Positions 4,058 through 56,176 of a stretch of DNA of 64,000 nt are shown piece after piece. Where the stretch lies: assembly GCF_046105845.1 (NCBI RefSeq), contig NZ_CP151004.1; one strand, 5' to 3'. The notes beneath the pieces were generated by a model. The model worked only from the letters and a program-made list of their open reading frames with translations. It made no database searches and was not told the origin of the DNA. Numbering within the stretch: the stretch's first letter is position 1; every line of letters begins with the position of its first letter. The stretch is from Escherichia coli (GTDB taxonomy: Bacteria > Pseudomonadota > Gammaproteobacteria > Enterobacterales > Enterobacteriaceae). The position numbers and the translations under genes were made by a program.

Positions 4058-4106
4058 GCCGGATGCGTCGCATCCGGCAATCGGTGCCAAATGCCGGATG
4101 CGTCGC
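4058..4106. repeat. REP/BIME palindromic units between convergent mglC and preA
   Basis: GCCGGATGCGTCGCATCCGGC perfect palindrome at 4058-4078 and a second partial copy at 4093-4106. Confidence 0.7.
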
Positions 4107-10226: not shown

Positions 10227-11174
10227 ATGCGTGTGTTACTGGCTCCGATGGAGGGTGTACTCGACTCTCTGGTGCGTGAATTGCTGACCGAAGTTAACGA
10301 CTACGATCTGTGCATCACCGAGTTTGTCCGCGTGGTGGATCAACTGCTGCCGGTAAAAGTCTTTCATCGCATTTGCCCTGAACTACAAAACGCCAGCCGG
10401 ACACCATCCGGTACGCTGGTGCGCGTGCAGTTGTTAGGCCAGTTCCCACAATGGCTGGCAGAGAACGCCGCCCGTGCAGTTGAGTTAGGTTCCTGGGGCG
10501 TGGATCTCAATTGCGGCTGCCCGTCGAAAACGGTTAACGGTAGCGGCGGTGGGGCGACGTTACTCAAAGATCCTGAACTCATCTATCAGGGTGCAAAAGC
10601 GATGCGCGAAGCTGTACCGGCGCATTTGCCCGTCAGCGTAAAAGTGCGTCTGGGCTGGGACAGCGGTGAGAAGAAATTTGAAATCGCCGATGCGGTGCAA
10701 CAGGCTGGTGCTACAGAGCTGGTGGTGCATGGGCGGACGAAAGAGCAGGGTTACCGCGCGGAGCATATTGACTGGCAGGCGATTGGCGAGATTCGCCAGC
10801 GGCTGAATATTCCGGTGATTGCCAACGGTGAAATCTGGGACTGGCAGAGTGCGCAACAATGCATGACGATCAGCGGATGCGACGCAGTGATGATTGGTCG
10901 CGGGGCGCTCAATATTCCCAACCTGAGCCGGGTGGTAAAATATAACGAACCGCGAATGCCGTGGCCGGAGGTGGTTGCTTTGCTGCAAAAATATACTCGT
11001 CTGGAAAAGCAGGGCGATACCGGGTTATATCACGTAGCGCGGATTAAACAGTGGTTGAGTTATTTGCGTAAAGAATACGATGAAGCAACGGAATTATTTC
11101 AGCATGTTCGGGTGTTGAATAATTCCCATGATATTGCAAGGGCTATTCAGGCAATTGATATCGAGAAACTCTAA
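10227..11174 (+). CDS. dusC: tRNA-dihydrouridine(16) synthase DusC
   Basis: Start chosen at [11 protein letters not shown] to give 315 aa; Dus-family TIM-barrel sequence. Confidence 0.93.
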
Positions 11175-11220
11175 GAAACCATAGTGATGTTTTTTGACAA
11201 TGTGTTAGCTCTTTATCAAT

Positions 11221-11452
11221 AGGCCGCACGGTTGTTTGGTGGCGTCAAAATCGCCGAGGCGTTCCCTGAAGGCCGGGGCAGCCCACATGGATGTGGGCTG
11301 AGGGCGCGTTTTACAGGGATGTTACCTCGCGCCCGACCCGGTAGCCGTAAGGGATAAGCCGAGGGCACCGCGCAGCGGCGATTTTGTTCGCCAGAGCCCG
11401 GGGGTGCAGGGGGCGGCGGCGATTGGCCGCCCCCTGCGCGCTCCTTGCGCCA
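11221..11452. repeat. GC-rich hairpin-dense intergenic element of unknown identity
   Basis: About 230 bp with perfect stems (CAGCCCACAT/ATGTGGGCTG at 11279-11300; GCAGGGGGCGGC/GCCGCCCCCTGC at 11406-11437) and a long-range inverted repeat (11243-11258 vs 11377-11393). Confidence 0.4.
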
Positions 11453-11546
11453 GTGATTATATGAAGCAATGCACATGACAGGAGCGCAACAGGATGAGAG
11501 ACTGAAATATTCTCGTTATTTTCGGATCTGATGACATTAATTAATT

Positions 11547-11630
11547 TTAAAATATCATCTTAAATACGCCAGTCACCACCAGTAGCCCAATCAGGAAAAT
11601 AATCAATACAGCCCAGAGTATAATTTTCAT
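11547..11630 (-). CDS. yohP: Small membrane protein YohP (27 aa)
   Basis: Hand translation gives MKIILWAVLIIFLIGLLVVTGVFKMIF*, a single-transmembrane small protein; not in the ORF track because of its size. Confidence 0.7.
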   Translation of the reverse strand: MKIILWAVLIIFLIGLLVVTGVFKMIF

Positions 11631-11853
11631 TGGCGTTCCTTTATTTGTGAGTGCTGAATAAGTATAGGAAAAAACGAAGCCCTTTGCCGCTATCCATAAA
11701 CTATTAAGATAAATCGGAAGATATCATTCACTTAGTGTATATTTTTCTGGATATGTCGTTTTATTGCCACTGATGTATTGCCACGCGAAACTAAAAAATA
11801 TATCGCAACACACGGTAATCTCCGCGCACCTTTTCTTACCTGATTATTCCCCC

Positions 11854-13290
11854 ATGAATCGTGATTCTTTTTATCCCGCCATCGCCTGTTTTCCGCTGTT
11901 ACTGATGCTGGCCGGGTGTGCGCCTATGCATGAAACCCGCCAGGCGTTAAGCCAGCACACGCCCGCTTCACAAGTTGACACCGCATTACCCACGGCGCTG
12001 AAAAATGGTTGGCCAGACAGCCAATGGTGGCTGGAGTATCACGATAATCAACTCACTTCCTTAATTAATAACGCACTACAGAACGCACCGGATATGCAGG
12101 TGGCTGAACAACGCATTCAACTGGCTGAAGCCCAGGCGAAGGCAGTTGCCACTCAGGATGGTCCGCAGCTCGACTTTTCTGCGGATATGGAGCGACAAAA
12201 AATGTCGGCAGAAGGCTTAATGGGGCCGTTTGCTCTGAACGATCCGGCCGCAGGTACGACCGGTCCGTGGTACACCAACGGTACTTTTGGCTTAACGGCG
12301 GGCTGGCATCTCGATATCTGGGGAAAGAATAGGGCGGAGGTAACTGCTCGCCTGGGAACGGTTAAAGCACGGGCGGCGGAACGCGAGCAAACCCGCCAAT
12401 TGCTGGCTGGCAGCGTAGCCCGCCTGTACTGGGAGTGGCAAACCCAGGCGGCGTTAAACACTGTCTTACAGCAAATCGAAAAAGAGCAGAACACCATTAT
12501 CGCCACCGATCGCCAGCTATATCAGAACGGGATTACTTCTTCAGTTGAAGGTGTGGAAACCGATATTAATGCCAGCAAAACCCGGCAGCAGCTCGACGAT
12601 GTCGCGGGGAAAATGAAAATTATTGAGGCACGGTTAAGCGCACTTACAAATCACCAGACAAAGGCATTGAAGCTTAATCCGGTCGCGTTGCCGAAAGTGG
12701 CAAGCCAGCTTCCTGATGAACTGGGGTACTCCTTACTGGCGCGGCGGGCAGATTTGCAGGCGGCGCACTGGTACGTTGAGTCATCGTTAAGCACTATTGA
12801 TGCGGCAAAAGCGGCATTTTATCCTGACATCAACCTGATGGCCTTCCTGCAACAGGATGCGTTGCACTTAAGCGATCTGTTCCGTCATTCCGCGCAGCAA
12901 ATGGGCGTTACGGCAGGCCTGACGCTACCCATTTTCGATAGTGGTCGTCTTAACGCCAACCTCGATATCGCAAAAGCCGAAAGCAACTTGTCTATCGCCA
13001 GCTACAACAAAGCGGTGGTTGAAGCGGTGAATGACGTGGCGCAGGCAGCCAGTCAGGTTCAGACACTGGCGGAGAAAAACCAGCATCAGGCGCAAATTGA
13101 GCGCGATGCCTTGCGTGTAGTAGGTCTTGCGCAGGCGCGCTTTAACGCGGGCATCATTGCGGGTTCCCGCGTCAGCGAAGCCAGAATCCCCGCGCTGCGT
13201 GAGCGGGCCAATGGCCTGTTATTGCAAGGGCAGTGGCTGGATGCCTCCATTCAACTCACTGGTGCGTTGGGCGGGGGTTACAAACGTTGA
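11854..13290 (+). CDS. mdtQ: Outer-membrane efflux lipoprotein MdtQ (OprM/NodT family), apparently intact
   Basis: Start chosen at MNRDSFYPAIACFPLLLMLAGC (lipobox) to give 478 aa; continuous frame. Confidence 0.88.
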   Translation: MNRDSFYPAIACFPLLLMLAGCAPMHETRQALSQHTPASQVDTALPTALKNGWPDSQWWLEYHDNQLTSLINNALQNAPDMQVAEQRIQLAEAQAKAVATQDGPQLDFSADMERQKMSAEGLMGPFALNDPAAGTTGPWYTNGTFGLTAGWHLDIWGKNRAEVTARLGTVKARAAEREQTRQLLAGSVARLYWEWQTQAALNTVLQQIEKEQNTIIATDRQLYQNGITSSVEGVETDINASKTRQQLDDVAGKMKIIEARLSALTNHQTKALKLNPVALPKVASQLPDELGYSLLARRADLQAAHWYVESSLSTIDAAKAAFYPDINLMAFLQQDALHLSDLFRHSAQQMGVTAGLTLPIFDSGRLNANLDIAKAESNLSIASYNKAVVEAVNDVAQAASQVQTLAEKNQHQAQIERDALRVVGLAQARFNAGIIAGSRVSEARIPALRERANGLLLQGQWLDASIQLTGALGGGYKR

Positions 13291-14144: not shown

Positions 14145-14226
14145 GTAGGCATGATAAGACGCACAAGCGTCGCATCAGGCATGGTGCACCGGATGTCGGA
14201 TGCGGCGCGAACGCCTTATCCTAGGC
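14145..14226. repeat. REP/BIME palindromic units between convergent yohF and yohD
   Basis: Two canonical REP units (GCCTGATGCGACGCTTGTGCGTCTTATCATGCCTACC on the minus strand; CGGATGCGGCGCGAACGCCTTATCC). Confidence 0.7.
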
Positions 14227-15569: not shown

Positions 15570-15742
15570 AAAGTTCTTTTGTGTTGCATTGCTGGCGTAA
15601 ATGTCAGCAATGCAGCATTTCCTCACGATTCTCCTTTGACGATCGCACTTTTTGCTCGTTATGATGGCGTCGCTAGCCTCAGTAAATCCTTACTCCGGCG
15701 GTGCGCAACCCGTGCGCGTGAACCACTATCTGAATGCTCATC

Positions 15743-36171: not shown

Positions 36172-36254
36172 AAAAAAACCTGCTGGTGAGGCAGGTTCTT
36201 TTATTTACTATTTTCAGGCCCAACACCGCAGCCTGTGCAACATCGTGTTCCAAC
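36172..36254 (-). ncRNA. Candidate OrzO-like antitoxin sRNA, copy 1
   Basis: Minus-strand TATAAT at 36266-36261 with TTGCAA -35 at 36289-36284 (17-bp spacer); ends at hairpin CCTGCCTCACCAGCAGG followed by TTTTTTT (36195-36172). Confidence 0.45.
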
Positions 36255-36777: not shown

Positions 36778-36862
36778 AAATAAAAGAACCTGCTGGTGAG
36801 GCAGGTTCTTTTATTTACTACTTTGATGTTAAGTTACTGATAGTGCAACATGGCATCTCAAC
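36778..36862 (-). ncRNA. Candidate OrzP-like antitoxin sRNA, copy 2
   Basis: Minus-strand TATAAT at 36874-36869 and TTGCAA at 36897-36892 (17-bp spacer); hairpin at 36789-36805 followed by a U-rich tract. Confidence 0.4.
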
Positions 36863-56043: not shown

Positions 56044-56176
56044 AACCAAACGACTCGGGGTGCCCTTCTGCGTGAAGGCTGAGAAATACCCGTATCACCT
56101 GATCTGGATAATGCCAGCGTAGGGAAGTCACGGACCACCAGGTCATTGCTTCTTCACGTTATGGCAGGAGCAAACT
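56044..56176 (+). ncRNA. TPP (THI-box) riboswitch in the thiM leader
   Basis: Leader contains GGGGTGCCCTTCTGCGTGAAGGCTGAGAAATACCCGTATCACCTGATCTGGATAATGCCAGCGTAGGGAA; Shine-Dalgarno GGAG at 56167-56170 lies in the expression platform. Confidence 0.85.

Follow-up and report, generated by a model that had tools for sequence, protein, structure and literature searches.

The GC-rich block downstream of dusC in an Escherichia coli genome: probable identity with the TRIP1c repeat (RRS-dusC) and a fold conserved across genera

We analysed a 64,000-nt stretch of an Escherichia coli genome (contig NZ_CP151004.1; hereafter the window), in which an earlier note, made from the sequence alone, had singled out a GC-rich, hairpin-dense block of ~230 bp downstream of dusC. 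This element is already known: its listing in a repeat catalogue dates from 1999, and experimental work on it, as a programmed trigger of replication gaps, from 2023 onwards. With a probability of roughly 85%, we read the block as the dusC copy of the TRIP1c repeat, that is, the Replication Risk Sequence (RRS) RRS-dusC, of which the unwound lagging-strand template would fold and leave a gap. The name TRIP1c was used by Rudd (1999) and Li et al. (2024; PMC10888264), and RRS-dusC by Pham et al. (2023, 2024; PMC10287960, PMC10592627) and Kusi-Appauh (2026). The element looked unexplained because the RefSeq annotation carries nothing at this position; the candidates of the earlier note did not include its published identity or its demonstrated activity at the DNA level. 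The re-examination names the element correctly and contributes four observations that bear on the published model. As unverified leads, it adds the full covarying fold, invariant GGA loops with a likeness to the TwoAYGGAY RNA class and a family-wide orientation bias, none of which (nor helix covariation as such) is discussed in the published RRS/TRIP1 papers.

The identification rests on position, sequence and context. Li et al. (PMC10888264) place K-12 TRIP1c at NC_000913.3 2229122–2229394, a 273-bp element 43–44 bp from yohI (dusC). This interval maps to positions 11218–11490 of the window, where the element starts 44 bp past the dusC stop (11174). RRS-dusC was located by Pham et al. (PMC10592627) 58–281 bp downstream of dusC, with a stated length of 222 bp; on the window this corresponds to 11232–11455, nearly the interval of 11221–11452 delimited in the earlier note. 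The ~230-bp extent proposed there therefore describes RRS-dusC well and falls short of the full repeat: homology among copies runs from ~11218 to 11490 (273 bp in K-12), and an extra covarying stem (11438–11445/11480–11487) belongs to the element. The checks suggested in the earlier note (copy number, an Rfam scan and comparison with K-12) resolved the identity. The window element is 99.6% identical to that of MG1655 over 271 nt without indels. It is also 100% identical to that of strain 2012C-4502, which carries it at three places in its genome. The published G-quadruplex (G4) motif GGGGGTGCAGGGGGCGGCGG, quoted in PMC10592627, has a single exact match in the window (11400–11419, + strand), with 0 expected by chance. 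The order of the surrounding genes, yohK(−), yohJ(−), dusC(+), element, yohP(−), mdtQ(+), is the same as in K-12, and homologous copies at aqpZ–lysO, efeU–putP and alx–sstT match published sites. With the same locus, the same G4 motif, the same orientation relative to dusC and this degree of identity, the window element and RRS/TRIP1 are the same element. An initial assignment to the 'RSA' repeat was wrong, and the RSA/Box C/BIME papers retrieved had no bearing on the element.

The sequence features described for the block were recovered. Its GC content is 0.57–0.74, as compared to 0.33–0.40 in the AT-rich flanks. Both perfect stems are present, one of 10 bp (11279–11288/11291–11300) and one of 12 bp (11406–11417/11426–11437), together with the enclosing long-range inverted repeat (16 nt, 88% complementary, 11246–11261/11371–11386), which the alignment fold described below carries out to 11240–11253/11379–11393. 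The recurring motif CGGCGATT occurs twice, at 11377–11384 and 11417–11424. Folded as single-stranded DNA (ssDNA), the block reaches −75 kcal/mol on the + strand and −72.5 kcal/mol on the − strand, versus means of −51 and −48 kcal/mol for dinucleotide shuffles (z of about −7.1 on either strand; 0 of 200 shuffles equally stable). The RNA fold of the element has −132 kcal/mol (z = −6.2). The view of the block as structured and non-coding is borne out as well: the open reading frames (ORFs) that cross it, for example one of 86 aa on the − strand, were rejected as coding because homologous copies differ by single-base indels, and are low-complexity, GC-rich artefacts. Scans for sigma-70 promoters and intrinsic terminators returned none within or adjacent to the block, in agreement with the lack of a terminator noted earlier; the sole promoter-like site (11531–11558) is outside. 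The parts of the element and the flanking genes, in window coordinates, are:

11218–11490 (+): full TRIP1c repeat; its G-rich strand is the window + strand, which is the dusC strand
11232–11455 (+): RRS-dusC core, placed by counting the deletion interval of PMC10592627 from the dusC stop (11174)
11240–11393 (+): closing stem P1 (11240–11253 with 11379–11393) around P2–P4 (11254–11277 with 11337–11364), from RNAalifold on 40 copies
11279–11300 (+): GGA hairpin 1, a 9–10-bp stem with loop AUGGAU (GGA at 11289–11291); three covarying pairs
11279–11403 (+): middle segment of ~125 bp missing from short forms (TRIP1b and others), flanked by imperfect direct repeats (11261–11278 and 11386–11403)
11302–11334 (+): GGA hairpin 2, with outer stem 11302–11305/11331–11334, inner pairs 11313–11314/11321–11322 and loop AGGGAU (GGA at 11317–11319)
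11368–11378 (+): small hairpin CCGC-GCA-GCGG (helix 9), with one covarying pair, in 8 of 40 copies
11400–11419 (+): G-quadruplex-forming motif GGGGGTGCAGGGGGCGGCGG, an exact match to the published motif
11406–11437 (+): 12-bp G/C hairpin overlapping the G4 motif; perfect stem, about −19 kcal/mol as ssDNA on either strand
11438–11487 (+): terminal stem GCGCTCCT/AGGAGCGC (11438–11445 with 11480–11487) with a variable loop; helix 11, two covarying pairs
10227–11174 (+): dusC, flanking gene directed towards the element; its ORF ends at 11174 (K-12 annotation)
11547–11630 (−): yohP, the gene of a 27-aa membrane protein, convergent from the other flank

The replication gap itself has been shown experimentally by others. 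In ssGap-seq, RecA and single-strand binding protein (SSB) gave strong peaks at dusC and lysO, on the template of the lagging strand; these vanished when the element was deleted and arose wherever an RRS was inserted (PMC10287960, PMC10592627). In vitro, synthesis by Pol I, II and IV on the G strand was blocked at the G4 site; a double RRS deletion was obtained only alongside amplification of insH7-8, and an RRS engineered in the inverted orientation produced no peak of RecA/SSB in vivo (PMC10592627). With a purified replisome, a gap formed at nearly every passage when the G strand was on the lagging template and in ~66% when the C strand was there (Kusi-Appauh 2026, preprint). In the mechanism supported by these experiments, the replisome unwinds the element, and the strand exposed on the lagging-strand template folds into a G-quadruplex and/or a hairpin array. 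The folded strand blocks the lagging-strand polymerase, synthesis restarts downstream, and a post-replication gap of up to ~2 kb is left, loaded with SSB and RecA. RRS-dusC is described as having a partner near lysO, inverted, ~1.3 Mb away and symmetric about dif; in the present genome such a partner would lie outside the 64-kb window. The K-12 lysO partner that we fetched aligns with the dusC element. Together with this partner, ~650 kb beyond dif, the transient gap might let topological stress escape at the borders of the Ter macrodomain, in the manner of a swivel or relief valve, a role proposed by the same authors who demonstrated the gap.

The allele in the window is of the K-12 type, its G-rich strand being also the strand of dusC. 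Because dusC lies on the − strand of NC_000913.3, in the left replichore, the window + strand corresponds to the K-12 − strand. The + strand shows a net positive GC skew, and FtsK-orienting polar sequences (KOPS) are distributed 6:0 in its favour. Judged from these signs and the K-12-like orientation, the G-rich strand should be the lagging-strand template in this genome, as stated for K-12.

Beyond the G run, the element has a fold that can be followed across genera. A search with the pattern of the 3′ hairpin returned 49 stretches in Escherichia, Klebsiella, Kluyvera, Enterobacter sp. ENT03 and Pseudocitrobacter, as well as more distant elements in Hafnia and Ewingella. The pattern stretches, the window and other fetched loci were combined into an alignment of 40 distinct long-form copies from five genera (271 columns), for which RNAalifold predicted 66 pairs in 11 helices. 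Paired cells amounted to 99.2%, as compared to 93.0% in shuffles (0 of 500 reached the observed value) and 38–43% when partners were slid. Similarly, 22 of the 66 pairs had changed on both sides, versus 12.5 in shuffles and 0–6 with partners slid. Compensatory changes affected 7 of the 12 pairs in P1, three of five in P2 and four in the 12-bp G/C hairpin, some of the latter inside the G runs. In the terminal stem, GAGCGCAA was the same in 39 of 40 copies, with GAGTGCAA in the remaining one. The whole multi-helix fold, and not the G run alone, is conserved through compensatory substitutions across genera, and selection appears to act on the single-strand fold. Since cells with G.T(U) outnumber those with A.C (20 versus 8 across copies), the G strand is modestly favoured as the folding strand; covariation does not separate ssDNA from RNA.

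The two GGA hairpins stand out within this fold. Both loops read C-A-N-G-G-A-N-G, with covarying stems and a GGA that never varies (40 of 40 copies). In hairpin 1 the loop is C-A-(U/G)-G-G-A-U-G. In hairpin 2, a switch from A-U to G-C beside the loop-closing C-G pair is found in 19 of 40 copies. Retention of the GGA in every copy across five genera points to a reader protein.

Globally, the element was found in 5425 of 5426 complete E. coli genomes, at a median of three places per genome. It occupies the dusC locus in 98% of these genomes; the other E. coli places are the aqpZ–lysO and efeU–putP spacers. Li et al. (PMC10888264) reported that E. coli strains differ in the presence and number of the copies. 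The same authors described the 125-bp internal deletion that gives rise to short forms. We found such forms at efeU–putP, at aqpZ–lysO in strain Z1323HEC0475 (L004:2975–3125; L numbers denote fetched loci) and in K. pneumoniae (L056). As these include loci besides putP, deletion between the internal direct repeats seems to recur.

Several findings weigh against reading the block as a gap-forming RRS that acts at the Ter flanks. To begin with, the topological-valve role is a hypothesis even in the source papers, and the invariant GGA loops play no part in the G4 model. Natural compensatory variants also preserve the hairpin while changing the G runs of the G4 motif: GGCGGC/GCCGCC has become GGAGGA/TCCTCC, and CAGGGGG/CCCCCTG has become CAGAGGG/CCCTCTG. 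As the hairpin is retained where the G runs change, selection visibly keeps the hairpin, and these variants bear on which of the two, the G4 or the hairpin array, really blocks the polymerase. Furthermore, orientation at dusC–yohP is not conserved. The 5426 genomes comprised 3318 with the K-12-type arrangement and 1999 (37%) with the element flipped, the latter including NC101 and strains of O157:H7 and O45:H2. Both directions had already been found by Li et al. (2952 versus 2789; PMC10888264). Some flipped genomes appear to be single-copy, for example NC101, with one place in its record. In strains JKHS006 and AVS0528, the element is flipped between the same two genes, with ~93% identity and other short spacers on both sides, and in strain E69 the lysO-locus and dusC-locus copies both appear reversed. 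As a separate observation, the two dusC–yohP haplotypes (window 11150–11540 versus L002:2330–2860 and L003) also differ in the dusC C-terminus (...IEKL* versus ...IDKLR*), and in the flipped haplotype the dusC stop lies within a perfect 13-bp palindrome (GATAAGCTGCGAT/ATCGCAGCTTATC).

The copies outside Escherichia add to these points. We oriented every fetched copy by its G strand and determined the GC skew of the flanks, with 1 kb each side of the 3′ hairpin match excluded; the loci outside Escherichia (within L013–L061) came from Kluyvera, Klebsiella, Enterobacter, Pseudocitrobacter and Hafnia/Ewingella. The skew was negative at 25 of 27 non-Escherichia loci (p = 5.6e-6), which by this measure have the G strand off the lagging-strand template; the window has the opposite sign. 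The negative skew persisted where the flanking ORFs were balanced or mostly on the G-strand side. Over all fetched loci, 39 Chi sites were on the G-strand side versus 89 on the opposite one, and 13 KOPS versus 26, again the reverse of the window. Copies on one contig share their orientation. Because the window signs are the reverse of those in other genera, the K-12 orientation seems to be a minority state in the family. This result rests on local skew, which mixes effects of replication and transcription, and applies in aggregate and not to individual loci; for the seven copies of K. pneumoniae ATCC 13883, strand and local skew cannot be reconciled with a simple map of two replichores. The bias fits the 2026 finding of C-strand gaps and sits uneasily with the absence of a RecA/SSB peak for inverted copies in vivo. 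If it is upheld on whole genomes, the relief-valve idea must explain why most copies face the other way. Finally, Klebsiella and Kluyvera genomes have 5 to 13 dispersed copies, some of them tandem or clustered, a pattern that does not resemble a pair of Ter-flanking devices. The counts were seven matches in K. pneumoniae ATCC 13883, 13 on one Klebsiella chromosome, seven and five in two Kluyvera and four in Enterobacter sp. ENT03.

In Klebsiella and Kluyvera, the element behaves as a multi-copy dispersed repeat. This raises the question of whether TRIP1 is at heart a selfish or neutral structured repeat, MITE-like (miniature inverted-repeat transposable element) or spread via ssDNA, whose fold is kept by palindrome self-correction or a mobilising enzyme. 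The replication gap and the inversions mediated by TRIP1a and TRIP1c would then be side effects, and most copies would persist where replication is least disturbed. We consider this account a tentative one, on the unlikely side, and it and the RRS reading are not mutually exclusive. It would accommodate the multiple copies at unrelated intergenic sites in Klebsiella, Kluyvera and Enterobacter, the many contigs that break within the element, the tandem copies 437 bp apart and the co-oriented clusters, the variable presence and copy number among E. coli strains and the repeated origin of short forms by internal direct-repeat deletion. The strong orientation bias, a suggestive sign, would fit too: elements that move through lagging-strand ssDNA, such as IS200/IS605 and REP/RAYT, show such a bias. 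The two ends bear a weak inverted-repeat-like resemblance to each other (TTGCGCT on the left side of the lysO copy versus the reverse complement of GGAGCGCAA), over only 7–8 nt. Against this account, we found no transposase gene beside the copies examined and saw no clear terminal inverted repeats or target-site duplications in the copy alignments. The earlier proposal of a non-autonomous repeat is right in that this is a small dispersed family; the data lend no support to a relic of an IS200/IS605-type element or to a recent horizontal acquisition. Moreover, within E. coli the positions at dusC and lysO are close to fixation (98% of genomes), and at least one RRS was reported to be conditionally essential in K-12 (PMC10592627).

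Several observations concern the dispersed copies themselves. The tandem pair is in K. pneumoniae (L009:1057–1318 and L009:1494–1755), and K. cryocrescens contig NZ_BCTM01000029.1 (L034–L036) carries three co-oriented copies within ~17 kb. The ends of many draft contigs fall within the element, and the Klebsiella copies have a conserved left extension of ~60 nt. Copies of the Klebsiella/E. coli type in a Sporobacter termitidis metagenome-assembled genome (MAG; L040), on a 583-bp Bacillus sp. contig (L050) and in a Proteobacteria MAG (L022) are most likely contamination of these unrelated short-contig assemblies. A plasmid-borne or mobile origin found no support: all 34 'plasmid' records with matches were non-mobilizable, and those inspected were chromosomal fragments or mislabelled chromosomes. 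The elements of Hafnia psychrotolerans, Ewingella americana and an Enterobacterales MAG (L039, L042–L044, L047) represent a different repeat, which has only the 3′ G/C hairpin (CAGGGGGCGGCGGCGACTGGCCGCCCCCTG) in common with TRIP1; this hairpin is followed by short tandem repeats of the TTGAA(T/G) type, and the remainder is unrelated to TRIP1.

The GGA loops led to a comparison with RNA families. At gathering thresholds, an Rfam scan found nothing at the element and four matches elsewhere in the window. In a permissive scan, 11245–11384 aligned to the whole TwoAYGGAY model (RF01731) with 30.2 bits (E = 0.017 for a 1-kb search), below the gathering threshold of 43 bits and with an E of ~1 if scaled to the whole window. 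The Rfam scan that the earlier note had suggested thus brought out an alignment to a known family, with a score below that at which membership is assigned. Other E. coli TRIP1 copies scored 29.6–33.1 bits. Like TwoAYGGAY, which is found in gamma-proteobacteria and was described with a very long P1 (Weinberg et al. 2010), TRIP1 has a long, covarying closing stem around two adjacent hairpins with A-N-GGA-Y loops. Loop 1 (AUGGAU) fits the AYGGAY consensus; in loop 2 (AGGGAU), the second position is R in 37 of 40 copies. TRIP1 differs in this mostly AGGGAY loop 2, in its extra helices, in its G-rich hairpin with the G4 motif and in its terminal stem. TwoAYGGAY, presumed to be an RNA, has had no function assigned since 2010. 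Pseudocitrobacter faecalis has, beside a TRIP1 copy (L023:1867–2128, −), another and divergent element (L023:2170–2400, +) that scored 49.2 bits against the TwoAYGGAY model and shows the layout of TRIP1, in which a closing stem is combined with two GGA hairpins and one G-rich hairpin; among the 5426 E. coli genomes, it had one partial match. In the literature searched, no paper naming TwoAYGGAY is an RRS or TRIP1 paper. A further match at the right end of the repeat, to the model of the small RNA AgvB (anti-GcvB) at 11464–11524 (−), reached 22.9 bits versus a gathering threshold of 56 (E = 0.088); it overlaps the end of the repeat and the spacer before yohP and is probably due to chance.

On this likeness a broader reading can be built, one that we regard as doubtful. 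TRIP1/RRS might be the enterobacterial branch of the orphan TwoAYGGAY class, dispersed and orientation-biased, in which the selected feature would be the whole fold with its two GGA loops, read by CsrA as RNA or by a hairpin-binding protein as ssDNA. In that case K-12, where the lagging template at both Ter flanks is the G strand, would show an unusual and possibly co-opted arrangement, and the G4 gap would be one consequence and not the whole purpose.

A narrower version, in which the G strand is transcribed into a TwoAYGGAY-type RNA whose two loops (CA-N-GGA-N-G, spaced by 28 nt) would be bound by a dimer of CsrA or some other loop reader, so that it acts as a small sponge or 3′-untranslated-region module, we consider improbable. 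The spacing of 28 nt between the GGA motifs would suit a CsrA dimer, and UACAGGGAUGU at GGA hairpin 2 matches the CsrA SELEX consensus. The full-model alignment, the Pseudocitrobacter neighbour that passes the threshold (49.2 versus 43 bits), the fixed GGA in both loops amid covarying stems and the excess of G.U over A.C cells, which favours folding of the G strand, are all consistent with such an RNA. In either orientation at dusC–yohP, read-through from one of the convergent genes would yield G-strand RNA. TwoAYGGAY, with which the very long P1 is shared, was independently proposed as a CsrA binder by Gardner and colleagues (PMC4333381). Against an RNA stand the score below the gathering threshold, with its whole-window E of ~1, and the lack of promoter or terminator matches in or beside the element. 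In the CsrA gene table of Potts 2017, dusC and ybjE have 'No' in all four yes/no columns (read as including crosslinking and immunoprecipitation sequencing, CLIP-seq) and are not significantly regulated, a weak negative because multi-mapping reads may have been dropped. One RRS paper in which CsrA was looked for (PMC10592627) does not mention it. At the K-12 lysO locus, the G strand is antisense to both neighbouring genes; at most loci the flanking genes are on the opposite strand (~2:1), and read-through would therefore give mostly C-strand RNA. Covariation, as said, is equally compatible with ssDNA.

CsrB, CsrC and RsmZ, to which the element bears a likeness in the GGA of its short-hairpin loops, set a further contrast. 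CsrB and CsrC have ~9–22 GGA sites, whereas the element has two or three, only two of them in hairpins, and has no dedicated promoter or terminator and no CLIP evidence. A CsrA sponge of the CsrB/CsrC type, with many GGA hairpins, its own promoter and terminator and CsrA binding in vivo, is supported neither by these features nor by Potts 2017, where dusC and ybjE show no CsrA association.

It is highly improbable that the block acts in the manner of repetitive extragenic palindromic (REP) sequences and bacterial interspersed mosaic elements (BIMEs), as a 3′-end structure that shields dusC or yohP mRNA from 3′ exonucleases or insulates convergent transcripts: its place between convergent genes 44 bp past dusC, the many other copies between convergent 3′ ends and the very stable RNA fold (−132 kcal/mol) would suit this role, whereas its sequence is unrelated to REP, tandem genes in either sense flank some of the copies, and neither the invariant GGA loops nor the replication phenotype would be explained. 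The stability and abundance of dusC mRNA were unchanged in a csrA mutant (Potts 2017), in a dataset that does not probe 3′-end protection. Membership in the REP/BIME family was rejected, as the core consensus (GCCKGATGCGRCG...) of the ~35-bp imperfect palindrome is absent at the element. The 13-nt REP core has 0 matches at 11200–11500 and seven elsewhere in the window (about 4058–4105, 7864, 14168–14207 and 21018), in line with the earlier remark that the block is unlike the REP units elsewhere in the window. REP/BIMEs and TRIP1 are alike in being GC-rich, intergenic, built of repeated hairpins, often placed between convergent genes and substrates for rearrangement. They differ in size (273 bp and 11 helices for TRIP1 versus units of ~35 bp) and copy number (1–5 per E. 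coli genome versus hundreds), with no sequence similarity.

For the RRS reading, a functional parallel is the pilE G4 of Neisseria gonorrhoeae, cited in the RRS papers as the only other bacterial sequence reported to trigger a G-quadruplex-linked replication gap. It is unrelated in sequence and organism, lacks an array of hairpins with multiple helices and functions in the antigenic variation of pilin.

Elsewhere in the window, mdtQ (11764–13290, +), the gene beyond yohP, is an intact long ORF, as compared to the frameshifted pseudogene annotated in K-12. The Rfam matches included two genes for OrzO-P antitoxin RNAs (zor-orz type I toxin–antitoxin; 36172–36247 and 36782–36855, −; 101 and 90 bits), a Peptidase-S11 leader RNA motif (15658–15738, +; 72.8 bits) and a thiamine pyrophosphate (TPP) riboswitch (56046–56142, +; 71.2 bits).

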